Of a stretch of DNA of 64,000 bases, positions 15,337 to 64,000 are shown piece by piece. Source of the stretch: Candidatus Microgenomates bacterium. GTDB lineage: Bacteria > Patescibacteriota > Microgenomatia > UBA8517. The translations under genes and the position numbers were made by a program. The notes beneath the pieces are model-generated. The model was given only the letters and a program-made list of their open reading frames with translations. It had not been told where the DNA came from and searched no databases. The stretch covers positions 193 to 64,192 of the forward strand of contig JBEKQV010000001.1 in NCBI GenBank assembly GCA_049519355.1. Reading direction: 5' to 3'. Position 1 is the first letter of the stretch. The number at the start of each line of letters is the position of its first letter.

Positions 15337-15343
15337 CAATCTC

Positions 15344-18187: not shown

Positions 18188-18206
18188 ATTATAGCGTTAG
18201 CTGCGA

Positions 18207-19810: not shown

Positions 19811-19866
19811 TTTCCAAAAAAGAAACTAAAAGAAGTATAAACGAAAGAGCGTAAAAAGCAAAAAGG

Positions 19867-20862
19867 CTATCGGCAAATTTTTTCGTAAAGTGCAAGGGTT
19901 TCCATGGCAGTCTTTTCCCAACTGTAAACCCGTGGAAGTCTTACATCTCTATTAGGGCTCAGGATTGCCCCTGCTATAGCCTTAGCGTTGTTAGGATCAA
20001 CATATTTTAGATCGTCACCCAATATTTCAACAAGGGCTTGAGTTTTCGAAGCGGCAAGAGGAGTTCCACAGGCAACCGCCTCAAGTGCCGGAATGCCAAA
20101 CCCTTCGTACAAAGAAGGTTGAACATAAACCGACGCCAAATTATAAATCGCAACCAAATCACTGTCGGGAACAAAACCCAATCTAATTACGCCGGACCAG
20201 TCAATATTCCTTAAATGCCTAAGTTCCGGGTGGTTTAGATCCAACTTTTCAATTTCTTTCGTCTGCTTACCAGCCATAACAAGCGGAATCTTGGCAATTT
20301 TACAAGCTTCAACCAAAGTTGGAATATTTTTATTATAATTCACATCCCCGACATACAAAGCAAACCGACTTGGTAATTTATATCGGTTTGTAATTTCCGT
20401 TTTCCATTTCCCGTTTTCAATTTTTCTGTATGCCTTCGGTGGCGCCAGGTAAGTTACATTAACTATCTCCGGATTAACTTCCAAGAATCTGCAAATATCT
20501 TTTTTGGATGTTTCCGTAATGGTAATAATTGCGTCCGCATTTTTTAATATCAATCGTTTATTCCTAATCCAATTAATTTTTCCCCTTACTCCCGGAGGAA
20601 AATGCGAAGGATAAATTAGAGGTATAAGATCGTAAATTGTTAATACAAACTTAGTATTCTTAGGCTTTAGCGGAGGCAACGAAACAAAAAAAGGATTAAA
20701 ACGGGTAAAATGAACCAAATCATATTTACTCAAATCTTCTTTCGAAACATCAACTCCCTCTATTTTCAAAGCTTTGAGAAGCTCACGGGTATATACACCA
20801 ATTCCGCGAACCGCATCACCACCGTTGAGAGGCCCCGAATCAATCGCAACTTTTGGTATCAT
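19867..20862 (-). CDS. Family 4 glycosyltransferase (GT-B)
   Basis: RGIGVYTRELLKAL at the N-terminus and EGFGIPALEAVACGTPLAASK in the C-domain. The ATG at 20862 gives an ATGA overlap with the upstream stop; the ORF-track TTG at 20874 is less likely. Confidence 0.7.
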   Translation of the reverse strand: MIPKVAIDSGPLNGGDAVRGIGVYTRELLKALKIEGVDVSKEDLSKYDLVHFTRFNPFFVSLPPLKPKNTKFVLTIYDLIPLIYPSHFPPGVRGKINWIRNKRLILKNADAIITITETSKKDICRFLEVNPEIVNVTYLAPPKAYRKIENGKWKTEITNRYKLPSRFALYVGDVNYNKNIPTLVEACKIAKIPLVMAGKQTKEIEKLDLNHPELRHLRNIDWSGVIRLGFVPDSDLVAIYNLASVYVQPSLYEGFGIPALEAVACGTPLAASKTQALVEILGDDLKYVDPNNAKAIAGAILSPNRDVRLPRVYSWEKTAMETLALYEKICR

Positions 20863-21959
20863 AGATCCTTCCAATTATATCTTTTTAGAAAAGAAAAGAG
20901 CAAAGATGAAAGATCCAGATAAAGAAATGGCAAAATTATTATAAAATAGCGCGTAAACGGAACCTCGGTGCTAACTAAAATAAGGTAGATTATTGGTAAA
21001 ATGTAAAAGAAAAATTTGATATCTTTTAATTTTGTTTTCAAAACCAAAATTAGTGAAGCAAGCAAAGATACCGGCCAGAAAAGACTCCAAACACTCGACC
21101 TTACCACCCCGTTTTGCCACCAGGGTGCGAAATAACCGGATAAAAATAGCAAGATCGATCCTCCCCATGAACCGGCTGAATTATGCGTAATCATAAATTT
21201 TAAAACCCTTCCTTCGAATAGAAAAATGTTAAACAGTCCCCCGGCTTTAATAAACGATACCGTGTAAGTTAAAGAGAAAACTACGGCCGCAATAACGAAG
21301 CTTGTTAAGATTTTTCTGAAATTAATCTTTTCTTTTTTAATGAGAATTTTATATCCAAAGATTAAAAATATAAAAATCAGCACGGTTGACCAAAATTTTG
21401 AAGCAGCAAAAAGTCCCAGAGTAATTCCCTGCAAAATAAAATTTTCGGGATAAAAAAATATCAAAATGATATACGAAAGCGCAAAAACTGCCTGTCCCAG
21501 ATCAAGAAGAGCCTCGTTCATCATACCAGAAAAAACAGGGTCAATTAAAAGCAGTAAAACGCCGACAAAAGAAAGCCAAGCATTTTTGAAAAGTTTCATT
21601 CCTAGTATAAAAGTCAAAAAAAGCAAAAGAAGCGCGAAAATTACTTGAATATAAAACGGATTTCCAGTTAAAAGTGTCGAAAAGCCGAAAAGGTACTTCA
21701 TAAGAGGAGGGTGCTGAAAATTATATTCCGTCGGATCCGTCCCCTTTGCATATAGATAACCTGTTGCAATATAAATATCGTTATCTGATATAAAAATCCT
21801 GTCTTTAATTTTTCCCAATGAATCTTCAATGTCCTGAGAGCGTAAATATTGTGGAACTAAATTCAAACTAAACTTATATTTAAAAATGTCCTGATGTTTT
21901 ACAAAAAGATAAATAAAAAAGAGAATCGTTATCAAAATATACGGAAGAATTTTTTTCAT
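20859..21959 (-). CDS. Polytopic membrane protein with an HPPL motif (GT-C-like); unknown function
   Basis: 366 aa. The FQHPPLMKYL loop motif resembles the PMT_2/ArnT family. It has 9 or more hydrophobic segments. Confidence 0.4.
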   Translation of the reverse strand: MKKILPYILITILFFIYLFVKHQDIFKYKFSLNLVPQYLRSQDIEDSLGKIKDRIFISDNDIYIATGYLYAKGTDPTEYNFQHPPLMKYLFGFSTLLTGNPFYIQVIFALLLLFLTFILGMKLFKNAWLSFVGVLLLLIDPVFSGMMNEALLDLGQAVFALSYIILIFFYPENFILQGITLGLFAASKFWSTVLIFIFLIFGYKILIKKEKINFRKILTSFVIAAVVFSLTYTVSFIKAGGLFNIFLFEGRVLKFMITHNSAGSWGGSILLFLSGYFAPWWQNGVVRSSVWSLFWPVSLLASLILVLKTKLKDIKFFFYILPIIYLILVSTEVPFTRYFIIILPFLYLDLSSLLFSFLKRYNWKDL

Positions 21960-49763: not shown

Positions 49764-51464
49764 CTAATTCACTTTAAAAATTGTTACGTTGTTATTTTGA
49801 AATATCTGTGTCAACCCAAGCTGCTTGGCTCCCAATTTCGCATGCTGATCCGTTAACCAATAAATATATGATATGTTATTTTTCTCAAGAAAACTTCTAG
49901 CACTACTAATATTTAGCGTCGTGAGAAAGCTCTCAACGGAATTTCTCCTTCCCTGCCAAGGATATTGTAAATTATCTAAATTCGTTTGATCTTCTAAAAA
50001 CGTATCCTTATCCGAAAAGGCAGAAACATATGCTGTTGTATCATACATGTACAACGGGGTTAATGAATGCCCACCCAAAATTTTTGTAGAGTTATAAGGG
50101 TAAGTTAACACGATACCATCCGGCTGTTGCGATAAGAATTTCAACGCTTCTAATTCATTTGTAGGAATAACAGAGGGTGGTTTCTCCGGCAAATAATAAC
50201 CCATCGACGCAATTGTTGTTGGTATGGTCAGCAATACAAAAATGGTAATTATCAAGCCTTTTGTAAACGATGATGATTTACTTTCAATAAAATTTCCTAC
50301 TACTACCCCCGCAGCGATTCCCCCAAATATAAGGGAATAATAGAAAAACTGAATGGTGTTCCATGGGGTTCCTTTCTGCGTAAAAAACATCGGGACGACA
50401 ATTCCTGCCAAAATTAATGCAAACAAAAATATCTCGATTGGACCTGCTGTTAATAGTTTTTTTGGCTTTTGGAGAAGTGGTTTGAGTGCCACTAGTCTCG
50501 TACTGAAATTGCCAACAATAAAAATAACAAACGCTAAACCATAAGCCAATATTGCCTTTCCCCAAATTCTTCCCATTCTATAAGTGGTCATCGCCGAATA
50601 GAGCTTGTACCAATTGAATCTGTCTGGGTAAGCCATCATCGATTCCAAAAACCAGAAAGGAGTAAAAACAATTAAGTTTACCGAAGATTTATTGAAGGGA
50701 ATAAATAAAAACATGGAGATTACTGCCGTGACCAAAAATATCCAAAGTAAAAAATAATCTTTCTTTCTAATTATCTGCCAGATTGCTACAATTAAAATTG
50801 AAGTTAAAACTAGAAGTCCCGCGTACACTTTGATAAAAATTGAGACGCCTAAAAATAATGCGGTAAGACAAAAGTTAAATAAAGTCTTTTTCTCAAGATA
50901 TTTTTTAAGGTATATGAGTCCCAAAAGAATAGTTATCAACGAAAGTGCAAATGGGGGGTTAATAAGAGTTGATATGGATTGCTGGGACCAATACATACTT
51001 TCCCCTCCCCAACCTTGACCTCTAAAAAGCGAAACCAACCAGCCAAAACTGCCGCCAAAGTAAACAAAAAAGACCGCAATCAACGATTCGATCTTTGATT
51101 TTCGCCAAATATACACAAATGCGTACGAAAGTAACCCAATTGCAAGAGCCAGTATTGGAGGGGTTATTTGAAAATAAAGATTAACAACAGGAATAAAAGT
51201 AATTTTGTGTAAAATGGCCAAAATTAAATCAAAACCGATGTGATAATTTTGAATAGGAAGACTTGCAAATGTAGGCAATTGAAACGACCCGCGCGACAAA
51301 CTTTCAGCAAGAGCGACATGCCATACCCCATCATGGCCGTTTGCTCCCCAAAAACCAATGCCGTAAGAATAAATCCACCCACTTTTTACCATCGTCAAAG
51401 ACCAAACAATGGTGCCAATTAAAACCAATAGCCATTTAAAAACGTTATTTGTTAATATTTTCAT
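49764..51464 (-). CDS. Polytopic membrane protein, family B paralog 3
   Basis: 566 aa. GANGHDGVWHVALAES, PIQNYHIGFDLIL, C-terminus ...TIFKVN. Confidence 0.5.
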   Translation of the reverse strand: MKILTNNVFKWLLVLIGTIVWSLTMVKSGWIYSYGIGFWGANGHDGVWHVALAESLSRGSFQLPTFASLPIQNYHIGFDLILAILHKITFIPVVNLYFQITPPILALAIGLLSYAFVYIWRKSKIESLIAVFFVYFGGSFGWLVSLFRGQGWGGESMYWSQQSISTLINPPFALSLITILLGLIYLKKYLEKKTLFNFCLTALFLGVSIFIKVYAGLLVLTSILIVAIWQIIRKKDYFLLWIFLVTAVISMFLFIPFNKSSVNLIVFTPFWFLESMMAYPDRFNWYKLYSAMTTYRMGRIWGKAILAYGLAFVIFIVGNFSTRLVALKPLLQKPKKLLTAGPIEIFLFALILAGIVVPMFFTQKGTPWNTIQFFYYSLIFGGIAAGVVVGNFIESKSSSFTKGLIITIFVLLTIPTTIASMGYYLPEKPPSVIPTNELEALKFLSQQPDGIVLTYPYNSTKILGGHSLTPLYMYDTTAYVSAFSDKDTFLEDQTNLDNLQYPWQGRRNSVESFLTTLNISSARSFLEKNNISYIYWLTDQHAKLGAKQLGLTQIFQNNNVTIFKVN

Positions 51465-52950
51465 TCTTGTGAAGTATTATTCCGGAAACTTTTCTTATGT
51501 CGTCAATTATCGACATTCCGACAAAAACAAAAATCGAAGCAAAATAAGCAACCATTCCAATAACTGTCAGCACAAAGACCGAATAAAGATTTACTGGCAA
51601 AAAGTTTCTTAGAACCAAAAGAACAGCTCCCATAATAAAGGATGCCGCAAGTGGCTTAAATGTACTTTCCGTCAACGAAAAGTCGACGTATTTCTTAACA
51701 ATAAATATAGCGATGATGGAGGAAGCTCCAACAATTGCATAACCTGCTGACGCACCGTTAACACCATACTTTAGACCCAAATAAGGAACAAGTAGCCATG
51801 TCAAAACTGTCCACATAACCATTAGTCCCGAAGTTATTTTGATCTTACCTATGGCATTCAGAAGGTTGGTCAATTGTGTCGTAACGGCAGCAAATATCAC
51901 GTTTACGGCTAAAAATGCAAGAGGAATAACTGCGGGTAGCCACTGAGAGAATTTGGATATGGATTGGAAAACTATCGGGGCAAGAATAACTATTCCGACA
52001 ACGGCAGGGAAAACCAAGAAAGCAATGAAGAAGATTGAGCGAGTTACATTTTCTTTCAATTCCTTCATGTTGTCCTGCATTCTGGAAAAAGCCGGGAAAG
52101 TAACCCGGGTTACATTATCAAGAACTACTCTTAGCGGCATCTGAATCCACCCCTGGGCCCAAGAAAGAATTCCAAGTGGTCCCAATCCGATAACTTTACC
52201 CAAGATTATTGTTAAACCGTCATCCTTTAAAACAGCTATAAAAGTGTTTATTTGGTATGGAATTCCAAAAACAAGAAGCTTCTTGAGTGAACTTCTTGAA
52301 ATCTGAAGTGTCGGCTTCCATGGTTGGAAAAGATATAGCACTGTTACTCCGATAATTCCCCTGGCAATAACCGAAATTGTAAAACTGGTAATTCCAAAAC
52401 CCTTCCACGCCAAAAAAACCAGAACGAGATTGTAAACAAGAGTCTCAATAATTGCAGATATCGCAACCACTTCGAATCTTAAATGCCGTTCCAATATCAC
52501 CGACGGAATTGATTTCAAAGAAGACATAAAAAATGAAAAACAAAGTGCATAAAGGAGGTATACCGAGCTTTGATCAAGATTGTAAAAATGGCGTATAAAC
52601 GAAGTCCCCGCCACTACAATAAGAATTAGTGTAATTACCAGTATCTGCTGAACAGTGAATGTTGTTTTTAGGTCCTCCTGCGTAATTTTTTCCTTCTTCT
52701 GAATTAAGGATGCGGCTAAACCAATATCAGAAAAGTAAACCAAAAAATTTATGATTGCGGAGACAACACCAAAAATTCCGAAAAGTACCGGGTTTAGAAA
52801 CTTGCCCAGAAAAAAATAGGCAATTATTGTGATTATGTAAACCCCAAAGTACTGTTGTGTGAGAGCCACAATACCTTTGACAGTACGGCTTTTGACGGTT
52901 TCCAGGTTTATTTCGGCCGTTGGATCCAAATGTTCCTCAGTAGGTTCCAC
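51445..52950 (-). CDS. wzx: Wzx-type oligosaccharide flippase (MOP superfamily polysaccharide biosynthesis protein)
   Basis: 501 aa with about 14 transmembrane segments. The N-terminal region VKGIVALTQQYFG...LNPVLFGIFGVVSAIINFLVYFSDIGLAASLIQKKE has the Polysacc_synt pattern. GTG start. Confidence 0.65.
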   Translation of the reverse strand: MEPTEEHLDPTAEINLETVKSRTVKGIVALTQQYFGVYIITIIAYFFLGKFLNPVLFGIFGVVSAIINFLVYFSDIGLAASLIQKKEKITQEDLKTTFTVQQILVITLILIVVAGTSFIRHFYNLDQSSVYLLYALCFSFFMSSLKSIPSVILERHLRFEVVAISAIIETLVYNLVLVFLAWKGFGITSFTISVIARGIIGVTVLYLFQPWKPTLQISRSSLKKLLVFGIPYQINTFIAVLKDDGLTIILGKVIGLGPLGILSWAQGWIQMPLRVVLDNVTRVTFPAFSRMQDNMKELKENVTRSIFFIAFLVFPAVVGIVILAPIVFQSISKFSQWLPAVIPLAFLAVNVIFAAVTTQLTNLLNAIGKIKITSGLMVMWTVLTWLLVPYLGLKYGVNGASAGYAIVGASSIIAIFIVKKYVDFSLTESTFKPLAASFIMGAVLLVLRNFLPVNLYSVFVLTVIGMVAYFASIFVFVGMSIIDDIRKVSGIILHKNENINK

Positions 52951-52987: not shown

Positions 52988-54493
52988 CTAGGAAGATTTT
53001 ACTTTAATTAACAACAAACTGTCCCTAGATCCGTCCGGTCTATAGGCCTTCGGGTAGGATGCTATAGTTATACCGATTTTGGAAGGAGCCACATTTAATC
53101 TTGATTGATTTATAAGAAGATAGGTTTCGTCCCCTGCCTTGATTGCATCAATCAAACTTTGTGGAATTGTGTTAATTCCTAACCCTACCCCGATAATCGT
53201 AATCTTAGGAACATCATTAAGATACATTTCAAGGCCGTCAGGGAGAGTGCCGAAATACCCTTCTGTCCCGACAACAATCTTGGTGGAAGGATTTGAAACC
53301 AACCTGTTTCTTAAATATACTGAGACTTCTTTAATTCCGTATCCTGAAGTCCACTCTTCGAGATAACCCGACCTTTCACTCCTGGGTAAGTTTGCTTTTG
53401 CAGGATTGAATAATAACCGGTAATCAAAAAATAATGACTGCCCTACAAAAAACACTAATATTAAAGCCAAAACTATCAGCAGTTTTTTTCTGTATTCAAG
53501 AAAAGCCGAAGCAGCTATAATAACCAAAAACGGAATTGAAAAAAGAATATATCGGGCGGTTAACACCTTGGCAAATTCACACTGAACCACAATCGGCCCC
53601 AAAAACCAAATCGTTAGAATCACAAGTTGCTTCCAACTCTTCTTCCAATTAATTAAATAACCGGCCAAACCAAGAACCAGCAGCGACCACGGCCCCATTG
53701 CAACCAGCCATTGCCAGGATTGAATCAAAAACGGTTTAAGGGGGTCAAAGGGACTTACCAAAAAATGATTTATCGGATAAACATAATCCAAGTTTCTACT
53801 TGCAATAAGTTCAAAATTAGGTCCAAGTCGTAAAATGTTATACATTCCGTAACCGATTATTAATGTGACAATGGTCAGAGGAACGATTTTAACAAGTCTT
53901 TTTGGAGATTTAATAAAGAACCAGAGAGTCGGAAGCATAATTGCAAAGAAGAGTGCCGGCGACTTTGTCAGCCATGCCCCTCCGAGTGCAAAACCGGCGA
54001 GCATTGCGCAGTCTAATCGCTCTTTTGTAAAAGCCAGATAGGCAAAAATAAAAGTCCAAACACCAAACATCGTGAGCATTGAATCTACCAAGGCCATTCT
54101 GTCAAAAAAGAATGAGAACGGAGAAACCGCATAAATTAAACCTGCGATAAGAGCCACTTTTTTATTCTTAAATAATAAGTATGTTAAGAACGAAGTTCCG
54201 ATTAGGGTTCCCAAACCGGACAAAACCGAAACAATTCTACCCGCCGTCAACGGATCGTGGATTAATTTCAAAAACGCAATGGTAATCCACATAAAAAGAG
54301 GTTCTTTTCCGTCGGACAAAGGTAAAAATCTCAAGGTTTCTTCAACCCTCATCACTTGCGACCAGCGGATATAAATCGCTTCGTCAGCAAAAACCGGTAT
54401 TATTGTTAAGTGAAAAAAACGTAACGAGAATAAAGCCAGAATGAAAATTCCACCGAGAATATATACCCAATTCTTACTAAAATATTTCATCAT
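52988..54493 (-). CDS. GT-C membrane glycosyltransferase, ArnT/PMT-like (third member of the ArnT-like DE-motif group A')
   Basis: Loop-1 PVFADEAIYIRWSQ, the DE motif. 11 or more transmembrane segments. The start at MMKYF (54493) avoids overlap with the upstream gene. Confidence 0.55.
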   Translation of the reverse strand: MMKYFSKNWVYILGGIFILALFSLRFFHLTIIPVFADEAIYIRWSQVMRVEETLRFLPLSDGKEPLFMWITIAFLKLIHDPLTAGRIVSVLSGLGTLIGTSFLTYLLFKNKKVALIAGLIYAVSPFSFFFDRMALVDSMLTMFGVWTFIFAYLAFTKERLDCAMLAGFALGGAWLTKSPALFFAIMLPTLWFFIKSPKRLVKIVPLTIVTLIIGYGMYNILRLGPNFELIASRNLDYVYPINHFLVSPFDPLKPFLIQSWQWLVAMGPWSLLVLGLAGYLINWKKSWKQLVILTIWFLGPIVVQCEFAKVLTARYILFSIPFLVIIAASAFLEYRKKLLIVLALILVFFVGQSLFFDYRLLFNPAKANLPRSERSGYLEEWTSGYGIKEVSVYLRNRLVSNPSTKIVVGTEGYFGTLPDGLEMYLNDVPKITIIGVGLGINTIPQSLIDAIKAGDETYLLINQSRLNVAPSKIGITIASYPKAYRPDGSRDSLLLIKVKSS

Positions 54494-54501
54494 AAATACA
54501 T

Positions 54502-55983
54502 TTATTCGGTATAACCGAACATCGGATCCGTTAAATTCGCATTTTCTCCCTGACAACTCTTATCCACATCCTTTTGATTATACTTTTTATAATCGGGAAG
54601 TATTAATCCCAATGCTCCAAAGCGATCATCAAATTTATTAACAAGAGAAAGCGGAAACACTATTGTATAAACGGGACTTCCGCTTACGGGATCATTTACG
54701 TGCATATTTGCCAGATAAAAAATATACCTGTATCCAAGGTTATAGCCGGGGTTTGTAATGTATGAGACTGATATACAAGGATAATTGTGTTTTTGTGCAT
54801 CCTCCTTTATATATGCAACTATCGCCTTTTTTTGAATATATCCATTTGAGCTGTCCGGCGTATTTAATATCAGATAAATATTTCCTGCCGAATAAACAGC
54901 AATTAAAAGAACCGCCAAGAACTTCCAAAACTTTTTCTCCAATAAATAACCAAGGAATAGCGCTGCAATAGCAATCCAAACTACATTCATCCCGTCCAGA
55001 TAGTATTCGGAAAGATTAAGTGAATTAACTGTAAAAAAGCCTATATACAGTAGCTGCCACAAGGTTAATAGCAGTGCATACTCTTTTGGCAGTTTTTTGA
55101 TAATTAATAAAAATATTGCAATACCAACCAAAAGATAGAAAGCTAGTCTAACAGGGACTTGGGAAACTGATGGAAAAAAAAGATAGGTCGTATTTGCATT
55201 AACTAGCTGCATAACACGGTCCAATTTTGCCCAACCGGTTGCGGTTTGAGGAACCAGATTTCTCTGTGTCGTTACCGATGCAATAACTGCCTTTGTTTGT
55301 TGAAAATTATGCCTGGCTTCAAAAATAATTAGCGGAGTTGATAAAACTACCAGTACTCCTGCACCCAATAAAAAATATTTCCATTGAAATTTTTTCCGAG
55401 ACAAAATCCAAGCAAGTAATGCCAATGGAGATACAACAACTAGGGCAAGATTCAAATGCCAGATAAGAGCAATCAGAACTCCAAAAAGAACAAACCCTAT
55501 TTTTTGCCGGCCTTTATAAATTAAATACAAGTCATATAAATACCACACAGTCCAAAGCATTACCGGCATCGTGGGAACAACATTTCTATCGGAGAAAACG
55601 ATCATTTCGGAAACCGTATAAATAATCGCACCAATCAAACCAACTTTTTTATTAAACATTTTGGAGAAAACAAAGTAGAAGCTATAAACCGCAAAAGTTC
55701 CGAGAATCATTGTCAAAAGCAGAACATAAATTGGATCCATATGCCCCAGTAAGTAAAAAGGAATCTGAAGATAATAAAAAAGTGCTCCAATAAACACCCC
55801 TGTAACGGAAGTTTGCTGCCCGATAAGCCTTACATGGTGATTAACCAAAATGTCTTTGATAATCCAGGACGCCAAATCATTATCGTGCGCATAATAAAAT
55901 AATTCATTGGCTTTATATGCCCTAAGGAAAAAGGCCAACCCTAAAACAAGGATTATCGGGATATATTTCAAATATTTCTTCAT
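54502..55983 (-). CDS. Polytopic membrane protein, family D paralog 1 (unknown; GT-C-like)
   Basis: 493 aa. FYYAHDNDLASWII aligns with the YDQxRD motif of 55987..57516 and 60905..62410. Confidence 0.45.
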   Translation of the reverse strand: MKKYLKYIPIILVLGLAFFLRAYKANELFYYAHDNDLASWIIKDILVNHHVRLIGQQTSVTGVFIGALFYYLQIPFYLLGHMDPIYVLLLTMILGTFAVYSFYFVFSKMFNKKVGLIGAIIYTVSEMIVFSDRNVVPTMPVMLWTVWYLYDLYLIYKGRQKIGFVLFGVLIALIWHLNLALVVVSPLALLAWILSRKKFQWKYFLLGAGVLVVLSTPLIIFEARHNFQQTKAVIASVTTQRNLVPQTATGWAKLDRVMQLVNANTTYLFFPSVSQVPVRLAFYLLVGIAIFLLIIKKLPKEYALLLTLWQLLYIGFFTVNSLNLSEYYLDGMNVVWIAIAALFLGYLLEKKFWKFLAVLLIAVYSAGNIYLILNTPDSSNGYIQKKAIVAYIKEDAQKHNYPCISVSYITNPGYNLGYRYIFYLANMHVNDPVSGSPVYTIVFPLSLVNKFDDRFGALGLILPDYKKYNQKDVDKSCQGENANLTDPMFGYTE

Positions 55984-55986
55984 ACC

Positions 55987-57516
55987 TTACTTTAATAATG
56001 TTCTTTTTTGAACAACTATTCCACCAAAATTCTTCTGTTCAACTACAGCAGTCTTTGAGTTCTCCTCGCTTATTGCATCATCAACAAAGTTTTGAGGAAT
56101 CCCTTCTTGAGGTTCTATAATAAAATAATAGATTTGGATATTCTTGGGCGTATCGGGAAGAATATCACCTATATCGCCCACCTGGCTTCTTCCGTGCCAG
56201 TATGGCAAATAACCATACTTACCCAATCCGTACCAGCTATACATATATGACCACGTTGTGTTCAACCAAAGGGGAGCGGTAATGCTATTGATACTAAATC
56301 TTTGACCACCGGATGATTGATATGTGTAATCTACTGCCTGTTCTAAATTAGAAAGGACCATTTCCCGCCTTAGTGTAAAAATTGTCTGACCATCCTTGTT
56401 TTCCGATAATATTTTCGTTAAACCTGAAAGAATAACTATAAAAGTTAAGATAACGGCAAAAATTTTCGACTTTTTCCAAATTGCCGAAATAAACATGGCA
56501 GCCAAAATACATACGGCTATTCCTATCCCGACAGTCAAATAGGGTGTATCGTTTCCGCCAAAAAAAACTACGGGTAAATGGGAAAAAAGATAAAGTAGCA
56601 AAAAAAACTTCGGGTCTTCCAAATGATTTTTCGATTCCCTTCCCCACTTTTGTGTAAACCAAACAATCATAACAAAACCTATAAATCCTCCAAACCCCAA
56701 ACTTAGGGGAAAAAGATTAAGGGAAAAAGTTTTACCAATCTGATTCAGATAAACAACTATAAAATCTCCAAAGCCTTTTACACTTAATAAAGTATTTCCT
56801 CCAGTAAAAAGATAGATTAATCCTTTTATTCCAGTGAGACCAAACTTGATCTGAGAAATCCAAATAGTACAAGTTCCTGCAATAAGTCCGCCCACAAACG
56901 CGCCAAATTGCCTGAGAGTAATACTCTTCTTACAAATAATAAGCCAAGTGGCAATGGCCGCAATGTGGTAGGCAAGAAAGAGATCGGATTGGATAGAGAA
57001 ACCAAAAAAAACGCCGGTAAGAAGTGCGTACCAAACATTTTTATTCCTTGTCCATAACCAAAGAAATAAATATGTTAGAGGTACAAACAAAAGGCCTATT
57101 GTTGGATTTGAAAGCCATGTCGCATATTGGCTCGCCTCAAACGAAAAAACAAAAAATAATGATGACAATAACGAGACGTCCCTCTTTCTAAATAAAAAAA
57201 ATGACAAGAAGTAGACAACGAAAACCGTTGCTGAGCTAAAGAACGCAAGCCAATAATCGGCAACGACAGGATTACCTTTTGAAGCAAAATAAGGTACGGC
57301 AAGAAAATAATCATACAAAACTCCATGATAAAGACCTGGGGCATTTGCAGAAGGACCCTGAATTTTTATGTCTCCAGCAATAATTTGTTTAACAAAAAAG
57401 GCGTCGCGGGCTTGATCGTAAGAAAAAGTTATCGCCGATTTATTTAGGTAAAGAACACGTAGTAAAAATCCGATTACAAATATGACCGAAACAGTTAGAA
57501 AGCTTTTTTTGTTCAC
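55987..57516 (-). CDS. Polytopic membrane protein, family D paralog 2
   Basis: 509 aa. FSYDQARDAFFVKQI and ...GGIVVQKRTLLK at the C-terminus (compare family D paralog 3, ...GGITVQERERTLYTK). Confidence 0.45.
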   Translation of the reverse strand: MNKKSFLTVSVIFVIGFLLRVLYLNKSAITFSYDQARDAFFVKQIIAGDIKIQGPSANAPGLYHGVLYDYFLAVPYFASKGNPVVADYWLAFFSSATVFVVYFLSFFLFRKRDVSLLSSLFFVFSFEASQYATWLSNPTIGLLFVPLTYLFLWLWTRNKNVWYALLTGVFFGFSIQSDLFLAYHIAAIATWLIICKKSITLRQFGAFVGGLIAGTCTIWISQIKFGLTGIKGLIYLFTGGNTLLSVKGFGDFIVVYLNQIGKTFSLNLFPLSLGFGGFIGFVMIVWFTQKWGRESKNHLEDPKFFLLLYLFSHLPVVFFGGNDTPYLTVGIGIAVCILAAMFISAIWKKSKIFAVILTFIVILSGLTKILSENKDGQTIFTLRREMVLSNLEQAVDYTYQSSGGQRFSINSITAPLWLNTTWSYMYSWYGLGKYGYLPYWHGRSQVGDIGDILPDTPKNIQIYYFIIEPQEGIPQNFVDDAISEENSKTAVVEQKNFGGIVVQKRTLLK

Positions 57517-57520
57517 TTTG

Positions 57521-58546
57521 CTATAAAATTCTTAAAACACTTTCTCCGAAAACTTTGTACCCGAATTTTTTAGAAGATTCCTGGGCTTTAATTCTTAATC
57601 CTGTAAGGGAAACCTTGCCTTCAATAATAGACATTGTTATCTTTCTCAAATCACCTTCGTTTTTCCACAAAAAACCGTTTACTCCGTTTTGGACTATTTC
57701 CTCATGGCCTCCGGCATCAAAGATAATCGGGACCGCTCCCGCAGCTAATGCCTCAACCACGGTAATCCCAAAATGCTCAACTTTTTCGGGGTTTTTATCT
57801 TCGTTGACTCCAAATCCGGAAGCACTCCAAAAAACTTTTGCTTTTCCGTATAAATCTTTCAGGGTTTTAAAATCGGGGCTCTCCACAAATTCAATCGGAT
57901 AGCCTTCCGATTCATCCTTTAATTCCTTCAAATAATCACCAGCCCCAATTTCCGCTCCCCCGGCAAGAATAAGCTTCCAGTCTTTCAACCCCTCGTTAAA
58001 CAACTTCTTGAACGTCCTGATTAATATTTCCTGACCTTTATTTTGAAGGATATGGGAAAACCTGCCCACGAAAAGAATTACATTCTCTTTTCTCTTTGGT
58101 TTAATATTCTCAACATCAATCGGCGGGTAAATCACCAAGCCATTAACTCCATACTCTCTATCTATAAAACTTTTTGTAAAATTTGAATTGCAAACAATTT
58201 TATTTATCCTAAAAAGCTTCATTCTATTTAAAAGGCTTTTGCCGCCTATGTTATGAAACGGGACCTGAAAATGAAGAATGTTTTTCCTTGCACGTAAGGT
58301 GGGGATGCTTCCGTCGGAGACCCAAAAACACAAATCATAACCGTCGCCTCTTTTGATGTCTTTTACAATATTTATTTCACTAAGATCTATCCCGAAACGA
58401 TTTTCAAGGATCTCCTTTATTCCGATATCTTTCCATTCCAAATCAACCATATATCCATTCTCGACAAGAACACGGGCGAAAGCGGTAGTATAACGCTCTC
58501 CCCCTCCCAATGTGTCCAAATACGGATTATAAATTGCTGCTCTCAT
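57521..58546 (-). CDS. Family 4 glycosyltransferase (GT-B)
   Basis: 341 aa. GGGERYTTAFARVL and GITVVEALAAGAVPIIFDAGGHEEIV. Confidence 0.7.
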   Translation of the reverse strand: MRAAIYNPYLDTLGGGERYTTAFARVLVENGYMVDLEWKDIGIKEILENRFGIDLSEINIVKDIKRGDGYDLCFWVSDGSIPTLRARKNILHFQVPFHNIGGKSLLNRMKLFRINKIVCNSNFTKSFIDREYGVNGLVIYPPIDVENIKPKRKENVILFVGRFSHILQNKGQEILIRTFKKLFNEGLKDWKLILAGGAEIGAGDYLKELKDESEGYPIEFVESPDFKTLKDLYGKAKVFWSASGFGVNEDKNPEKVEHFGITVVEALAAGAVPIIFDAGGHEEIVQNGVNGFLWKNEGDLRKITMSIIEGKVSLTGLRIKAQESSKKFGYKVFGESVLRIL

Positions 58547-59243
58547 GTTTTATTTGAAGCTCCCAAAGTTTAGAATATGTGATTAACCTACTAAACGTCT
58601 GATAAATTATTTCTATTATTCCTACGGTTCCGTCCAAAAAACCAAGCTTAACAATTCCCCTATACCAAAATTCCCTAAAACCGGCACTGAAAAATCTAAT
58701 TATATTCATCTCTGGATGACCAGAATCGTATAAAAGTTTTGCTTCAATTTCCGACCATTTGTTCGTTTTTTCAACCATCTCAGTAATATTCCTGTGACTA
58801 ATATGAATAAGGGGTTCTTTCAGATGGGCCGTGAACCCGACTATTTCCGGTTGTTCGTGCAATTCTCCTTTCCAACCCTTTAGTTTATCTTTCTCAATGA
58901 GCCTTAAAACAAAATCAGGACTCCATCCGCCCCAATGCATTTCGTGACCCAAAAAAATATTTTTACGGGGAATCGCGTAAGCGGAAAACTCGTTAGTTCC
59001 GATTACTTGTAGAATCATCTTTTTAAGTTCCGGTGTTACCTCTTCGTCGGTGTCTAAATACAACAACCAATCCCCTTTTGCTTTTTTTGCTCCCTCATTT
59101 CTCCAGTCGGCAAAGCCTCCCTTGATTTTTGATGTATCAACCTTCACTATCTCATCACACCAAGCGACTGAGTCTAGACACTTAACCAATAAGTTTTTAT
59201 CGACCACACCCCCGATTAAAACTATTGCACTGATTTTTGTCAT
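58527..59243 (-). CDS. GT2-like glycosyltransferase
   Basis: 238 aa. ISAIVLIGG...CLDSVAWCDEIVKVD and YLDTDEE. This subtype is shared with 59245..60141 and 21956..22822. Confidence 0.55.
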   Translation of the reverse strand: MTKISAIVLIGGVVDKNLLVKCLDSVAWCDEIVKVDTSKIKGGFADWRNEGAKKAKGDWLLYLDTDEEVTPELKKMILQVIGTNEFSAYAIPRKNIFLGHEMHWGGWSPDFVLRLIEKDKLKGWKGELHEQPEIVGFTAHLKEPLIHISHRNITEMVEKTNKWSEIEAKLLYDSGHPEMNIIRFFSAGFREFWYRGIVKLGFLDGTVGIIEIIYQTFSRLITYSKLWELQIKHESSNL

Positions 59244-59244
59244 T

Positions 59245-60141
59245 CTAAATTTTTAATTTACGTCTTATACGATCACCCAACTTCCCAGACTCTTTATATG
59301 AGGAGTCAAATTCCCAATAGTGCAAGTCTTTTTCCTCATCTCGAAAAACACTAATAACTTCGGACAAGTTTGGATTTTGATCGCTAAATTTTTCTTTCTG
59401 CCAAACTTTAAGATAAACCGACAACTCCGAAAAAGCCTGGAGTAAAGAAAGAGCCAACCCATGCAACCCGTCTTTATAACCTTCACCAAAAAAATAACGG
59501 CTTAAAAATTCATTCGACGGTTTAAGAATTAAATCTTTCCACAAAAATTTATAGCCTTCTTTAATTCTAAGAAGTGCATGCTGAGTTGAATAAGCATTCA
59601 TTCGTTCTAGATACTGCTCAACAGAATCATAATTGTGATGAATTATTGCAAATTCCTCTTTGTCTTCAATTTCCCCGCCAACTCCCTGTGTCATGGGAAC
59701 CATGTGGATTATTTCATTCCAAGAAACGGTGCCTTTTTTGAAAAGGCGAATATTGTAATCTGGCCACCAACGTGAGTGTTGCATCCAATGCCCAAAAATG
59801 ATATTTTTCCTGGGAATTCTAAAATAATCGGCTTTTGGTTCTTTCAAAACCCGGCTAATTTTTTGTGCAAGCGAGATAGGTACTTCTTCATCAGCATCAA
59901 GAATGAAAATCCATGGATTTGAAGCTTTTGAAATAGCAAAATTTCTGGCAGGTTCCACATATCCGGTTTTTTCATGAGTGAAAACCTTAGCTCCCAGTGA
60001 TTTAGCCACTTCGGCAGTTTTATCTTCCGACTCCATGTCGACAACTATAATCTCGTCCGCTAAGTTTTTTATGGAGGTTATTGCCTTCGGAAGGTTCTTT
60101 TCTTCGTTAAGTGTATTTATTACTACCGAAATCTTTTCCAC
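59245..60141 (-). CDS. Family 2 glycosyltransferase
   Basis: 298 aa. KISVVINTLNEEKNLPKAITSIKNLADEIIVVDMESEDKT and ILDADEE. Confidence 0.7.
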   Translation of the reverse strand: MEKISVVINTLNEEKNLPKAITSIKNLADEIIVVDMESEDKTAEVAKSLGAKVFTHEKTGYVEPARNFAISKASNPWIFILDADEEVPISLAQKISRVLKEPKADYFRIPRKNIIFGHWMQHSRWWPDYNIRLFKKGTVSWNEIIHMVPMTQGVGGEIEDKEEFAIIHHNYDSVEQYLERMNAYSTQHALLRIKEGYKFLWKDLILKPSNEFLSRYFFGEGYKDGLHGLALSLLQAFSELSVYLKVWQKEKFSDQNPNLSEVISVFRDEEKDLHYWEFDSSYKESGKLGDRIRRKLKI

Positions 60142-60161
60142 AAGCTCAATTGTAGCACTAA

Positions 60162-60908
60162 TTAGACCTTATATTTTCCCTGAAGAGCGTTAAGACGGAC
60201 CAAGATAAGCCCCCTAAGCCCTTCGATTGAGTCCTTAATCGGGTCAACTTTTGTTCCCTCTTTGTGATGCCAGTCAACCGGAACCTCGGCAATTCGGTAA
60301 CCAAGCTTTCTGGCAACGTAGAGAATTTCCAGATCAAATCCGGCCGTAACTGAGGCTCCAGTATTTTCACTCGTGGCATTGAAAATTTCCAAGCGCTTAA
60401 AAATCCCTTCGGCAGATGAATTGGTAAACGCCTTAAAGCCACACTGGGTGTCTTTAAACGGAAGTCTCAAAATTAAAAGACGAAGAAGGGAAAATCCCGA
60501 AGCCATGATTTTACGAATTAGCGGTGCCCCTTCCCTTCCGTGGCGGGAACCGATAACGACATCGTAGCCCTCTTTAAATTTCGGCAAAACCTTTTCAAGC
60601 TGATCTATCGGCGTCGCCTGATCGGCGTCGGTAAATAAAATTATGTCGCCTCTTGCTTTAAGCATACCGGCAATCACCGTTCCACCTTTTCCCCTGTGAG
60701 GTTCAGTCAAAACCGAAAAATTATTGTGTTTTTTGGCAAAATCTTCCGCAATTTTTAATGTAGAGTCCGTTGAGCCGTCATCGACAAACAGAATTTCCCA
60801 GGAGTATTTTTGTTCTTTGAGATAATCGTAAACGGAATCCAGAACTCCTGTTCGCAAGTTATATTCTTCATTGAAGGCCGGTATAACAACGCTTAAAAAC
60901 GGTTTCAT
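60162..60908 (-). CDS. Polyprenyl-phosphate sugar synthase (GT2; DPM1/GtrB-like)
   Basis: 248 aa. LSVVIPAFNEEYNL...ILFVDDGSTDST...LFTDADQATP; short catalytic-domain-only form. Confidence 0.65.
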   Translation of the reverse strand: MKPFLSVVIPAFNEEYNLRTGVLDSVYDYLKEQKYSWEILFVDDGSTDSTLKIAEDFAKKHNNFSVLTEPHRGKGGTVIAGMLKARGDIILFTDADQATPIDQLEKVLPKFKEGYDVVIGSRHGREGAPLIRKIMASGFSLLRLLILRLPFKDTQCGFKAFTNSSAEGIFKRLEIFNATSENTGASVTAGFDLEILYVARKLGYRIAEVPVDWHHKEGTKVDPIKDSIEGLRGLILVRLNALQGKYKV

Positions 60909-62410
60909 TTTGTATATAACGTCCTTTCCCTTTCTTGAACCGTGATTCCGCCAAACGAAACCTGCTTGATAACTTTCCCGATTCCTTTTTGCCTACCAAG
61001 CCAAGCCTGAAGCCGCTCAGGATGCGGCGGGTCAACTTCATATAATGTAAATAGAAGTGGAATTTGCTGATCAACCGGCAGCTTATGATACTTTGTGGTT
61101 CCAAGCCATTCAAACAAATAATTATATGAGTAGGGAATTACGGGCGGGACATATTCATCAACATTAAAATTCTGCGAACCTGCATTTTTGTAAATCCAAT
61201 CTATTGCTTCCTCTTGATTAACCAAGCAGATACTCTCCGTCCCTTGGCAAGTGTCGTGAATCCTCCCCCAAACAACAGGAACGTTATTGATATAAAAAAG
61301 AAAGAAAAAACAAAGCACAAAAACCACACCGATGATTTTCAACTTCCAAATTCTTCCCAATACAATTGCAAAAAGCAAAATAAAAATCAGGTAATAACCG
61401 GTCATGTAATAGTCATATAAAATTCCGTAATTTCCCTGATAAAAATAAAGTCCGACAACTGCAGATAACAAAAGAAGTAAAATTACATTTACCTTAGTGT
61501 TCTTAATTAGTTTTGGTAAAAACGCCAAAAATGAAATTCCTGTAATTACCATTACCGCGGAATTAAAATTATTTCCAGACTGGAAAATTTTGTTTGTAAA
61601 AATATTAACGTAATCTGAAGTCCTGGATTTAATGAAAACCCAACTTGGCATTCCAAAGCTTCCGCTACCCATACCGAAAGTCCCAAATAAATTATGCAAA
61701 AGAATATGTTGATGTTTAATATCAAACAAAACAAGTGGCGCAAATGTCAGAAAAAATAAAATTGCTGATAAAATAAAATTTTTTAAATCAGGTCGATTTT
61801 TCCACTGCCAGATTAAAAAAATCGCCAACGCAGGAAAGTAGAAAAACTCACCTGAAGAACCAAAACTAAAAAGTGATAGTCCCGCAACCGTGGCAATAAC
61901 CGGCCAGCCCCACTTTTTTCCTTCAGTCACTTTAATCATTGCCCAAACCAATACTAAAGAAAGCAGAAGCATCGGCGTGGGATTACTTAACCAGCGGGAG
62001 GCCAAAACTATATTAAATGAAAATCCGGCAATAATTGCAGCTATTATTCCCGTAGTTTTATCCTGAATTTTCGTCCCAAGGTGGTATATCAACCAAACCG
62101 CAACCACTGTGGTAAATGCCAAAAATACAAACGGCAAAATCGGACTCCCGTGTCCTATCCAATAAAATGGTGCAAGAAGATAATAATAATAAGGCGCTCT
62201 AAAAATTCCGGGCAGCCCTGTGGTTGGACCTATTAAGAAAAATTTGTGGTTGTAAATAAAATCCCAAATGACCAAAGCATCGCGGCCCTGATCGTAATAA
62301 AAATTTAAGATTTGATTAACTCTAAAAACCCTGAGGATAAAAGCACCAATTAAAATAATAGAAATTAAAATATTCTGAACAGAAAAAATTTTTTTAATCT
62401 TTTTTGGCAT
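60905..62410 (-). CDS. Polytopic membrane protein, family D paralog 3
   Basis: 501 aa. FYYDQGRDALVIWDF and C-terminus GGITVQERERTLYTK. Confidence 0.45.
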   Translation of the reverse strand: MPKKIKKIFSVQNILISIILIGAFILRVFRVNQILNFYYDQGRDALVIWDFIYNHKFFLIGPTTGLPGIFRAPYYYYLLAPFYWIGHGSPILPFVFLAFTTVVAVWLIYHLGTKIQDKTTGIIAAIIAGFSFNIVLASRWLSNPTPMLLLSLVLVWAMIKVTEGKKWGWPVIATVAGLSLFSFGSSGEFFYFPALAIFLIWQWKNRPDLKNFILSAILFFLTFAPLVLFDIKHQHILLHNLFGTFGMGSGSFGMPSWVFIKSRTSDYVNIFTNKIFQSGNNFNSAVMVITGISFLAFLPKLIKNTKVNVILLLLLSAVVGLYFYQGNYGILYDYYMTGYYLIFILLFAIVLGRIWKLKIIGVVFVLCFFFLFYINNVPVVWGRIHDTCQGTESICLVNQEEAIDWIYKNAGSQNFNVDEYVPPVIPYSYNYLFEWLGTTKYHKLPVDQQIPLLFTLYEVDPPHPERLQAWLGRQKGIGKVIKQVSFGGITVQERERTLYTK

Positions 62411-63383
62411 ACTTTCTAACTGCTTCCAGAGCTTTTTCTACTGCTTCGTCAAAAGCCACATCTCTAATTATGGCAGCCGCTGCTTGTTTGTGACCACCAC
62501 CTCCGAGAGCCTCAGCTGCTTCTGAAATATCAAAACCTTCTTTTGCCCGCAAACTAACATTCAAAAAGTTTTTCTTCTCTTCAACCATTATTATTCCAAA
62601 ATCAGCATCCGCAATTGAAGAAGCGAAAAGGCTAGCTGCCATACTTTTTACTCCACTTGAATCTGGGTAAAGAATAACCGTTTCATAGGGAATGGCCGAC
62701 CAGATAAACCGATGTTCCTTATCAATCTTTATATTTTTTAAAACCTCACCAAGCAGCTTAATCTGATCCAAACTTATATTCCGATATAAATTGAGGATTA
62801 TTTTGTTCTTATCACCACCCAGCTCCATAAGTCTCGCCATTGTTTTAGCTGCACCAACATCAGCCCAAGGATGCTGTAATGAAGAAGTATCGTAAATAAG
62901 CCCAGCTAACAAATCCTCAGCAATTTCTTTTGTAATTTTAACTTCCCAATCAGAAAAAAGCCTAAACAATATTTCTCCTGTCGAACTTCTTTCAAAGTCT
63001 ACAAGGTTAATTTCACCAAGCTTTTTATTTGTACGATGGTGATCAATAATAATCTTTTTAATTTCTGGAATTTTTTCTTTGCCATATCCTGCTACTTGAG
63101 ACCACTCCGAAGAATCGAGAATCAAAAATAGATCAAAGGCTGAAAAGTTAAACTTATCAAAATCTATTTTTTGTATAGATTCGGATGAGTTTAAAAATTT
63201 GGAATCAGACGAAACATTATTGGGACAAATTACTTCTACAGACTTACCCATATGCATCAGAACCCTCCGCATAGCTAATGCGCTTCCTACACTATCAGGA
63301 TCAGGGCTTCTGTGACAATTGATTAAAATCTTATTTGCCTTTTTAATTTCCGCCAATATTTTGGTCGATTCTTTGTAATTCAT
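62394..63383 (-). CDS. nrnA: DHH/DHHA1 phosphoesterase, NrnA-like (oligoribonuclease/pAp phosphatase)
   Basis: 329 aa. ...NCHRSPDPDSVGSALAM..., IIIDHHRTN (DHH) and GGGGHKQAAAA (DHHA1 GGGH). Confidence 0.7.
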   Translation of the reverse strand: MNYKESTKILAEIKKANKILINCHRSPDPDSVGSALAMRRVLMHMGKSVEVICPNNVSSDSKFLNSSESIQKIDFDKFNFSAFDLFLILDSSEWSQVAGYGKEKIPEIKKIIIDHHRTNKKLGEINLVDFERSSTGEILFRLFSDWEVKITKEIAEDLLAGLIYDTSSLQHPWADVGAAKTMARLMELGGDKNKIILNLYRNISLDQIKLLGEVLKNIKIDKEHRFIWSAIPYETVILYPDSSGVKSMAASLFASSIADADFGIIMVEEKKNFLNVSLRAKEGFDISEAAEALGGGGHKQAAAAIIRDVAFDEAVEKALEAVRKYAKKD

Positions 63384-63392: not shown

Positions 63393-64000
63393 CTATTGTG
63401 TGTGCACCAGTTTGTATATTATAACGCCGTCCAACGGCCAACTGCTGTCTATTTTACTCCAACCAAAACTTGCTATTTGGGATTTGGGATTATGAGTCGG
63501 GTCACATTTACTGGTAGGAATAAGTTCGCACACGGCAAATAGCTGATTCGCAAAAGTAGAAGGATTAGTTGCATCAATTTCCAAAACTTTTCCACCGTAA
63601 AGTTCTACAAAATACTGATACCCTGCTTCATAGTTCGTATCGGCAATAACCGCCAGATTCATAGGCTTCCCAGCAGCTTCTTTAACTATTAGTCTTGCCA
63701 CATCTTCACTTCGTTGCAAAAGCCTATTGGGTTCTTTTCTTAACGGGTTATTAACTATGTTGATTCCAATCAAATACAAAAGAAGTAAAACCCCCAACCA
63801 TTTGATAATTTTTCCGCCGGACAAAAGCATGGAGATGATACTCCCTATTAAAAGAAACGGCACAACAAACATAAAACCGAGATAATGGTCATAAATATTT
63901 TCTTTATAAAGACCAAGGCCAATTAGACCAAAACCAAGCCAGGAAAAAATAAGCCAATACTGATTGGCAAGTTTTAAACTTTTCCTCTTTAAGTAATTTC
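63393..64000 (-). CDS. Partial membrane/periplasmic protein whose 5' end lies beyond the window; unknown function
   Basis: The minus-strand frame stays open from 63872 to the window end (...NYLKRKSLKLANQYWLIFSWLGFGLIGLGLYKENIYDHYLGFMFVVPFLLIG...). The listed ORF 63393..63872 is probably only its C-terminal part. Confidence 0.4.
   Translation of the reverse strand, partial: NYLKRKSLKLANQYWLIFSWLGFGLIGLGLYKENIYDHYLGFMFVVPFLLIGSIISMLLSGGKIIKWLGVLLLLYLIGINIVNNPLRKEPNRLLQRSEDVARLIVKEAAGKPMNLAVIADTNYEAGYQYFVELYGGKVLEIDATNPSTFANQLFAVCELIPTSKCDPTHNPKSQIASFGWSKIDSSWPLDGVIIYKLVHTQ

Follow-up and report, generated by a model that had tools for sequence, protein, structure and literature searches.

In a window of 64,000 nucleotides from Candidatus Microgenomates bacterium (the whole stretch of DNA that was analysed, to which all positions refer), the region from 49.7 to 64 kb consists of closely packed genes, all on the minus strand. 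Among them are a family of membrane proteins, which we call family D, and three glycosyltransferases of family 2 (GT2), which we call GT2a, GT2b and GT2c. Our analysis indicates that the family-D proteins D1, D2, D3 and D4 are probably paralogous GT-C glycosyltransferases of the ArnT/PMT_2 superfamily, and that GT2a probably makes a lipid-phosphate-sugar that is flipped across the membrane and used outside by D3, by D1 and by a PMT-type protein, PMT522. Fold, homology, conservation and position of motifs, and synteny were computed, and from these we infer the donor lipid, the sugar, the flipping, the catalysis and the acceptor. The genes and motifs that carry the proposal, in the order of transcription, are as follows.

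63393..64000, minus strand: D4, a fourth family-D paralogue of 513 aa, of which the window end leaves only the 3' third (frame open to the edge; identical to public contig L001:7477-9018).
60905..62410, minus strand: D3, a predicted 501-aa membrane glycosyltransferase of the GT-C fold, ArnT/PMT_2-like (Pfam PMT_2, AlphaFold2 model, Foldseek).
62276..62296, minus strand: loop motif Y39-D-Q-G-R-D-A45 of D3, with the candidate catalytic Asp40, in the first extracytoplasmic loop directly after transmembrane helix 1 (TM1) (orthologue conservation).
60929..60955, minus strand: C-terminal strand motif FGGITVQER of D3, within an extracytoplasmic alpha/beta domain of ~110 aa (conservation and AlphaFold2 strands).
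60905..60908, minus strand: ATGA, at which the D3 stop overlaps the GT2a start (sequence ...TAT ACA AAA TGA AAC CG).
60162..60908, minus strand: GT2a, a predicted 248-aa polyprenyl-phosphate hexosyltransferase-like GT-A enzyme without transmembrane (TM) helices (Pfam GT2 106 bits, PDB, AlphaFold2).
55987..57516, minus strand: D2, a 509-aa family-D GT-C paralogue (Pfam PMT_2 26.9 bits; motif SYDQARDAF at 57400..57420).
54502..55983, minus strand: D1, a 493-aa family-D GT-C paralogue (Pfam PMT_2 25.1 bits; variant motif HDNDLAS at 55867..55887).

An earlier note on this DNA, made from the letters alone, had described D1, D2 and D3 as a family of three open reading frames (ORFs) of 490-510 aa; all three (493, 509 and 501 aa, respectively) had been placed correctly. 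Judged by their sequences, they are real though distant paralogues. BLAST aligned D1 with D3 at 24% identity (79 bits), D2 with D3 in an N-terminal segment (66 bits) and a C-terminal segment (55 bits), and D1 with D2 at 40 bits, and hhalign matched the D1-family profile to the D2-family profile with a probability of 99.7% (E 2e-25, 399 columns). The three-member family was, however, incomplete, as the note had missed D4, which scored 97 bits to D3 and 94 bits to D1 in BLAST. The last 201 codons of D4 lie inside the window, and the full protein, with the loop motif FLGDEGRDV, is encoded on the identical public contig. The ORF at 63393..63872 (159 aa) is not a separate gene; it starts at an internal ATG of the cut D4.

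The two features by which the family had been recognized, an N-terminal YDQxRDA motif and a C-terminal GGI(V/T)VQ(K/E)R tail, are shared by D2 and D3, but not by D1. The loop reads YYDQGRDAL in D3 and SYDQARDAF in D2, whereas that of D1, AHDNDLAS, retains the first Asp only and is without the Arg-Asp; the D1 orthologues have the consensus Y.HDqDLa.W in place of YDQGRDA. The tail is FGGITVQER in D3 and FGGIVVQKR in D2, whereas D1 ends in ...PMFGYTE. Among 62 D3 orthologues, the stretch F-x-[YF]-D-Q-G-R-D-A-L-V-I-W-D was essentially invariant and the tail was conserved as FGGI[TV]V[QE]xRxR. Residues D40, R43 and D44, as well as residues of the extracytoplasmic loops (SRWLSNPTPM, GIFRGPYYYY), were strictly invariant among these orthologues, and D40 was invariant across D1-D4 too. 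The near-invariance in 62 orthologues therefore indicates that selection maintains the YDQGRDA motif and that its occurrence is not accidental.

The AlphaFold2 model of D3, built from 64 sequences, was of high confidence (predicted local distance difference test score, pLDDT, 92.9; predicted template-modelling score, pTM, 0.91). Compared with the PDB by Foldseek, it matched ArnT (5f15/5ezm) best, with E values from 5e-7 to 8e-6 and TMq (the Foldseek template-modelling score) of 0.56-0.58, followed by STT3 and oligosaccharyltransferase (OST), ALG9, AglB, DPY19, Pmt4, Pmt1-Pmt2, AftD and PimE; the top 24 matches were all GT-C enzymes. These matches therefore assign the modelled fold of D3 to GT-C, and D1, D2 and D4 are placed there by homology. 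The suggestion of the earlier note that the proteins are extracytoplasmic transferases using a lipid-linked sugar agrees with the model, the predicted fold being that of such enzymes. A transporter-like architecture, in which the note had seen a possible refutation, was rejected: matches to MFS, GLUT and other transporters had a Foldseek probability of <=0.2 and a TM score of <=0.14.

The helices of the model and the sequence would place the N-terminus of D3 inside, and loop 1 and the C-terminal domain outside. A K-rich N-terminus precedes TM1 (residues 11-28) and a long first outside loop (29-90) that holds the motif (39-45). Ten further TM helices follow, the cytoplasmic connectors of which all bear K/R, and the outside alpha/beta domain (~390-500) ends in FGGITVQER, with AlphaFold2 strands at 478-486 and 489-496.

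The loop motif can be related to known GT-C signatures. When the D2-family profile was compared with the PMT522-family profile (94% probability, E 1.4e-7), YDQA was aligned on ADEA, the PMT-type DE motif, and E. coli ArnT (annotated MG1655 record) carries PDETRYAE where D3 carries its motif, directly after TM1. The alignment with the DE motif and the position in ArnT therefore point to YDQGRDA as the form that the catalytic signature of GT-C loop 1 takes in family D. Only the comparison of family profile with family profile revealed the relation to the DE motif; hhalign of the D3 profile against the single PMT522 sequence was not significant. For its activity, ArnT needs two motifs of periplasmic loop 1, RYA and YFEKP (PMC5377068); their counterparts are RDA and IFR(A/G)P in D3, and RDA and LYHGV in D2, while D1 has neither. 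Read from the sequence, the substitutions in the YDQGRDA loop, Gln for Glu and Asp for the Tyr of ArnT, exclude orthology to ArnT, but not membership of GT-C.

Database matches were consistent with this placement at the level of the superfamily. With a gathering threshold of 26.1 bits for Pfam PMT_2 (PF13231), D3 scored above (36.6 bits), D2 marginally above (26.9) and D1 just below (25.1); precomputed PF13231 matches were found on most D3 orthologues and were absent from most D2 orthologues. The NCBIfam scan results for D1, D2 and D3 contained no ArnT model. The 1379 D3 homologues found carried GT39-family or ArnT-family names from Microgenomates and Woesebacteria, and the exact D2 protein is named 'glycosyltransferase family 39 protein [Candidatus Microgenomates bacterium]' in NCBI, on an 846-kb contig. 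Among 1.84 billion cluster representatives, a profile search gave 7975 members at E <=1e-3 and 1389 at E <=1e-30. It is from the fold and from the adjoining gene for a polyprenyl-phosphate glycosyltransferase-like protein only that we infer the use of a polyprenyl-phosphate-linked donor on the outer face.

That adjoining gene, GT2a, had been called DPM1-like in the earlier note, and both sequence and structure bore this out. Its best sequence matches in the PDB were DPMS of P. furiosus (5mlz), GtrB of Synechocystis (5ekp) and ArnC, at E about 1e-15. The AlphaFold2 model of GT2a (pLDDT 81.7), which ends in one long helix (223-242), matched GtrB, ArnC and DPMS at Foldseek ranks 1-16 over nearly the full length (TMq 0.64-0.74), with GtrB 9nyc, ArnC 9bhc and DPMS at the top (0.70-0.74). 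D94-x-D96 and D153-TQCGFK were invariant in the orthologues, and across the same relatives GT2a was about 80% identical and D3 about 55-60%. NCBI and JGI label close homologues of GT2a 'dolichyl-phosphate beta-glucosyltransferase', a name that is annotation only, and the NCBIfam equivalog scores were far under cutoff (PgfS, 82 versus 500; dolichyl-phosphate-hexose transferase, 66.5 versus 375; ArnC, 61.5 versus 529). By its closest sequences and structures, which are of this type and not those of polymerising or soluble GT2s, GT2a is a GtrB/ArnC/DPMS-like polyprenyl-phosphate glycosyltransferase, with that activity predicted. Human DPM1 and mycobacterial Ppm1 are catalytic subunits without TM helices. 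GT2a resembles TM-less subtypes of GT-A such as the variant GacI (PMC8035078).

The earlier note had taken D3 and GT2a for a donor/transferase pair in the order 'synthase followed by transferase', translationally coupled by a 4-nucleotide (nt) overlap. The overlap is there, as ATGA, but the order is reversed: D3 is transcribed before GT2a, because the genes lie on the minus strand. Three more genes of the same string are needed to describe the surroundings of the pair.

62394..63383, minus strand: DHH/DHHA1 (NrnA-like) gene between D4 and D3 (NCBIfam NrnA match below cutoff).
52988..54493, minus strand: PMT522, a classical PMT/PMT_2-type GT-C with loop motif FADEAIY (Pfam PMT_2 49.5 bits, PMT 40.3 bits).
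51445..52950, minus strand: Wzx-type (Polysacc_synt_3) flippase, a candidate flippase for lipid-linked sugar or glycan (Pfam 183.6 bits).

We compared 80 species-representative loci with a D3 orthologue (39-75% identity), which came from Woesebacteria, Blackburnbacteria, Microgenomates and generically labelled metagenome-assembled genomes and in which ORFs were labelled by BLAST to the proteins of the window. The conserved order was GT2(236 aa, ArnC-like)-D4-DHH-D3-[D1]-GT2a-PMT522-46367/48027-type GT-C-Wzx-M566. The GT2a orthologue was directly downstream of D3 in 44 loci and one gene further in 33, that is, within one gene of D3 in 77 of the 80; among the other three, it was two or three genes off in two, and one 2.2-kb contig ends before it. 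D1 stood between D3 and GT2a in about 30 (30-33) loci. In 22 loci, the GT-C gene upstream (D3 or D1) and GT2a shared a -4 overlap; PMT522 came next after GT2a in 60 of 74 loci, 16 times with a -4 overlap. The pairing of GT2a with D3 therefore survives as close adjacency, but not as an exclusive bond, since GT2a abuts D1 and PMT522 as tightly; the gene order suggests a synthase that several transferases share rather than an exclusive partner of D3. The neighbourhood check proposed in the note, for obligate adjacency to a DPM1/GtrB-like GT2 gene, gave a similarly divided answer: within the lineage such adjacency holds for D3, D1 and D4, but not for the D2 orthologues of the four genomes compared.

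Upstream of D3, the order GT2-D4-DHH-D3 was found in at least 56 of the 80 loci, with the ArnC-like GT2 directly upstream of D4 in 65 of 70. In the organism studied here, this 236-aa GT2 lies outside the window (L001:6770-9018 spans the pair); it is TM-less, its coordinates overlap D4, and its best PDB match is ArnC (9e-19). Downstream, a Wzx-type gene was conserved in many loci. Further upstream and also outside the window (L001:4119-5333, ~4.7 kb from D3) lies the gene for a fusion protein of 404 aa that joins a GT2 to a GtrA_DPMS_TM domain and is of the full-length DPMS type (polyprenyl-phosphate glycosyltransferase). In many loci this gene has been conserved ahead of the GT2-D4 pair; three putative lipid-phosphate-sugar synthases are thus encoded within about 8 kb.

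The DHH/DHHA1 gene is NrnA-like (oligoribonuclease/pAp phosphatase) and is set inside the glycosylation operon, where 17 nt are shared between it and the start of D3; loci L024, L039 and L059 have two or three tandem copies of it. As mechanically called, the PMT522 ORF spans 52988..54556 (522 aa, TTG start) and overlaps D1 by 55 nt; in the public gene calls on identical contigs it has 501 aa and its start is at 54493, so that a gap of 8 nt separates it from D1. A scan of 49-64 kb gave 36 promoter-like sites, against 42.5 expected from shuffles, and 17 terminator-like sites, against 13.8; there was no enrichment, and the scan neither defines nor excludes internal transcription units.

Between GT2a and D2 lie three more glycosyltransferase genes, which the earlier note had joined with GT2a into a single four-gene block.

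59245..60141, minus strand: GT2b, a 298-aa soluble GT2 of the D2 module (Pfam GT2 83 bits).
58527..59243, minus strand: GT2c, a 238-aa paralogue of GT2b, with an N-terminally truncated GT2 match (Pfam GT2 35.8 bits).
57521..58546, minus strand: GT4, a 341-aa cytoplasmic GT-B glycosyltransferase (Pfam Glycos_transf_1 80 bits).

Pfam confirmed what the note had said of the four genes singly, one GT4, two GT2s and the DPM1-like GT2. The block as such did not hold; it falls into two units, GT2a with D3, and GT2b-GT2c-GT4 with D2. D2 was near D3 in only 2 of the 80 D3 loci, and the run GT2b-GT2c-GT4 followed GT2a in only 7. The single block was ruled out by the neighbourhoods of D2 orthologues, where an independent GT2-GT2-GT2-GT4-(YfhO)-D2 module was found: in four Woesebacteria genomes (L086-L089) the order was GT2-GT2-GT2-(methyltransferase)-GT4-(YfhO, about 800 aa)-D2-methyltransferase-GT2-GT2-PMT. 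The GT4 upstream of the D2 orthologues (341-345 aa) directly adjoins D2 in L089, and the YfhO gene lies between the two in L086-L088. Going by these gene orders, GT2b-GT2c-GT4-D2 is an independent conserved module, here placed between GT2a and D1. The best PDB matches of GT2b were GmaR, the Listeria flagellin O-GlcNAc transferase (E 1.7e-14), and SunS, a peptide S-glycosyltransferase. GT2c is 29% identical to GT2b in BLAST (E 4e-21); its Pfam GT2 match covers the profile only from position 52 on, and the nucleotide-binding N-terminus of GT2c may accordingly be degenerate.

We propose the following mechanism. TM-less GT2a, at the cytoplasmic face of the membrane, would transfer a hexose, probably glucose from UDP-glucose, onto polyprenyl phosphate. 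The resulting lipid-phosphate-sugar would be flipped outward, with the Wzx-type protein or the GtrA-domain GT2 fusion outside the window as candidate flippases. At the outer face, GT-Cs (D3, D1, PMT522 and probably others) would transfer the sugar to a surface acceptor, maybe a protein or a cell-wall glycopolymer, with catalysis via the invariant Asp of the YDQGRDA loop after TM1. GT2a would most likely feed several flanking GT-Cs rather than D3 alone, and GT2b-GT2c-GT4-D2 would be a second conserved module juxtaposed here.

Several observations weigh against this mechanism. On the side of the synthase, the 248 aa of GT2a contain no hydrophobic segment, and it is thus without the TM anchors of GtrB and ArnC (two) or of P. 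furiosus DPMS (four), and no small GacJ-like membrane partner is encoded in the operon. On the side of the transferases, a single-sequence search of D3 against PDB chains gave no match, a profile search gave spurious matches only (E >0.6) and no ArnT chain, and hhalign of the D3 profile against the single E. coli ArnT sequence was not significant. None of these proteins reached an NCBIfam equivalog cutoff. In the YDQGRDA loop, Asp replaces the Tyr of RYA that is essential in ArnT, and Gln replaces the Glu of DE; on these sequence differences, the active-site chemistry of family D may differ from that of ArnT and PMT. The D2 orthologues sit in the GT2/GT4 module and not beside a DPM1-like gene. 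Finally, all 80 loci belong to one lineage (Microgenomates/Woesebacteria/Blackburnbacteria), and the conserved adjacency of GT2a and D3 could be inherited synteny.

Another assignment of partners, which we consider possible though doubtful, is the following: the true partner of GT2a would be PMT522 or a general pool of lipid-phosphate-glucose, and D3 would be a neighbour by inherited order that takes its donor from the ArnC-like GT2 or the GT2-GtrA fusion. The frequency with which PMT522 follows GT2a, at times with a -4 overlap, and with which D1 intervenes before it, is in line with this assignment, as is the presence of two more polyprenyl-phosphate glycosyltransferase-like GT2s just upstream. 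The higher identity of GT2a than of D3 across relatives likewise suggests a shared, housekeeping-like synthase. However, the same -4 overlap joins D3 or D1 to GT2a in 22 loci, and in the window it is D3 that overlaps GT2a, through ATGA, whereas PMT522 is six genes away. A shared GT2a synthase is also compatible with D3 as an additional client; L. monocytogenes GttA, for example, is needed for galactosylation of wall and lipoteichoic acid alike (PMC8035078).

Two other explanations concern what the family-D proteins themselves do. Some of them, especially D2, might act as OST- or ligase-like enzymes, transferring a preassembled polyprenyl-diphosphate-oligosaccharide flipped by Wzx instead of a single sugar. 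STT3, AglB and OST are indeed among the best structural matches, the D2 orthologues lie among three or four cytoplasmic glycosyltransferases rather than beside a DPM1-like gene, and the operon has a Wzx-type flippase. We nevertheless hold this to be unlikely, given that ArnT is the top structural match, that Pfam gives PMT_2 and not STT3, that the loop motif of the family aligns with the PMT-type DE motif and that the genes of the window include no priming phosphoglycosyltransferase of the Bac_transf or MraY/WecA type. It is very unlikely that the family-D proteins are non-catalytic, GT-C-like accessory factors (acceptor-binding or flippase-associated, in the sense of Agl23). This would fit the ArnT-type motif with Gln for Glu and Asp for Tyr, and the NCBIfam matches to TIGR03663 'flippase activity-associated protein Agl23' (D3 18.7 and D4 47.4 bits); but every such match is far below the cutoff of 126 bits, and the strict invariance of D40, R43, D44 and many residues of the extracytoplasmic loops is active-site-like.

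One of the known systems nearest to the proposed GT2a/GT-C mechanism is that of ArnT (CAZy GT83), the undecaprenyl-phosphate-L-Ara4N transferase that acts on lipid A, with ArnC as its lipid-sugar synthase. Family D shares with ArnT the GT-C fold, ArnT being the best structural match of D3, an extracytoplasmic C-terminal alpha/beta domain, and an acidic-Arg motif right after TM1 in the first outside loop (DETRYA in ArnT, DQGRDA in D3, DEGRDV in D4). As with ArnT and ArnC, a GT2 polyprenyl-phosphate glycosyltransferase is encoded in the same operon; both GT2a and the 236-aa GT2 have ArnC as one of their top matches. Family D differs from ArnT in having no significant sequence similarity to it, in the replacement of the RYA Tyr by Asp and in (I/M)(F/Y)xGP in place of YFEKP; GT2a lacks the two TM helices of ArnC, and no ArnE/F-type flippase is present here. 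For the bacterium studied here, a Woesebacteria-like member of the candidate phyla radiation (CPR), we assume that lipid A is not available as an acceptor. The system of protein O-mannosyltransferases (PMT, GT39) with DPM1 or Ppm1 as the synthase of dolichyl- or polyprenyl-phosphate-mannose is similar in the Pfam PMT_2/PMT matches, the GT39 naming in NCBI and the alignment of the loop-1 Asp with the DE motif. It is unlike in that DE is DQ in D2 and D3, MIR domains are missing, the Pfam scores are at or barely above threshold (25-37 bits) and the annotation of GT2a is that of a glucosyl synthase (ALG5-like) rather than of a mannosyl synthase.

Multi-component (three-component) transmembrane glycosylation has been described in Gram-positive bacteria for CsbB/GtcA/YfhO, GtlA/GtlB, CsdAB/CD/EF of L. 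lactis and GacI/GacJ/GacK/GacL of S. pyogenes (PMC8035078, PMC5836110), with adjacent GT-A/GT-C pairs, TM-less GT-A variants and Wzx-type flippases (PMC8035078). The locus studied here resembles these systems in that GT-A and GT-C genes lie side by side, that the lipid-phosphate-sugar is predicted to be made inside and used outside, and that one synthase or flippase would be able to serve several GT-Cs; GT2a with the Wzx gene at 51445..52950 is like the GacI-type variant of a TM-less GT-A and a Wzx-type flippase. In contrast to these systems, the operon has neither a GacJ-like small membrane partner nor a stand-alone GtrA gene, its GT-Cs are PMT_2-like and not YfhO- or GtrC-like, and several GT-C paralogues (D4, D3, D1, PMT522 and more) surround two or three synthases.

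The GT39/ArnT-like and dolichyl-phosphate-glucose-synthase-like annotation is known already, as are the scheme of GT-A, flippase and GT-C and the gene arrangement. What is added here is a divergent, lineage-rich GT-C subfamily and its synteny map, and not a new kind of system. Mildly notable are the remodelled loop motif, the coupling of a synthase without TM helices to GT-Cs on either side, and the number of GT-C paralogues. Our searches of the literature on GT-C or ArnT-like enzymes in CPR/Patescibacteria yielded nothing relevant. A bolder extension of the proposed mechanism, which we consider quite unlikely as a whole, is that family D forms a GT-C clade specific to Microgenomates/CPR, marked by DQ-x-RD for DE-x-RY, that TM-less GT2a is recruited to the membrane by complex formation with the coupled GT-Cs, and that the ~20 paralogues diversify the CPR surface glycan. 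If true, this would mean a synthase-transferase assembly and a surface glycan relevant to host attachment or phage evasion.

Bacteria of the CPR/Patescibacteria live in attachment to other cells, and their genomes are tiny. It is in such a bacterium that a 64-kb island, with several putative lipid-sugar synthases, is devoted to surface glycosylation, and the core operon GT2-D4-DHH-D3-(D1)-GT2a-PMT522 supplies specific candidate genes with which CPR surface glycosylation could be reconstituted. For a genome of roughly 0.8-1 Mb, the share taken up by the ~20 GT-C paralogues is unusually large.

The whole window has the content of a surface-glycan island. Its left third (338..20874) begins with nonulosonic-acid-type genes at 1-5 kb, namely NeuB (1028..2128), an aminotransferase-cytidylyltransferase fusion (2119..3969) and a PseB-like dehydratase (3966..4979), and also has C- and FkbM-type methyltransferases, a Wzm/Wzt ABC exporter (10049..12122), several GT2s, epimerases and a GT4. 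From 22824 to 57516 there are about 20 consecutive membrane proteins of 450-690 aa, which fall into several GT-C-like families. PMT_2/PMT matches were found at 24212, 25816, 27345, 29039, 33028, 35709, 37361, 39085, 48027 and 52988, PTPS_related matches at 46367 and 48027, and a DUF6056 match at 22824. Three further members of this run (40716, 42725 and 49764) are Pfam-negative paralogues with a mutual identity of 29-39%.

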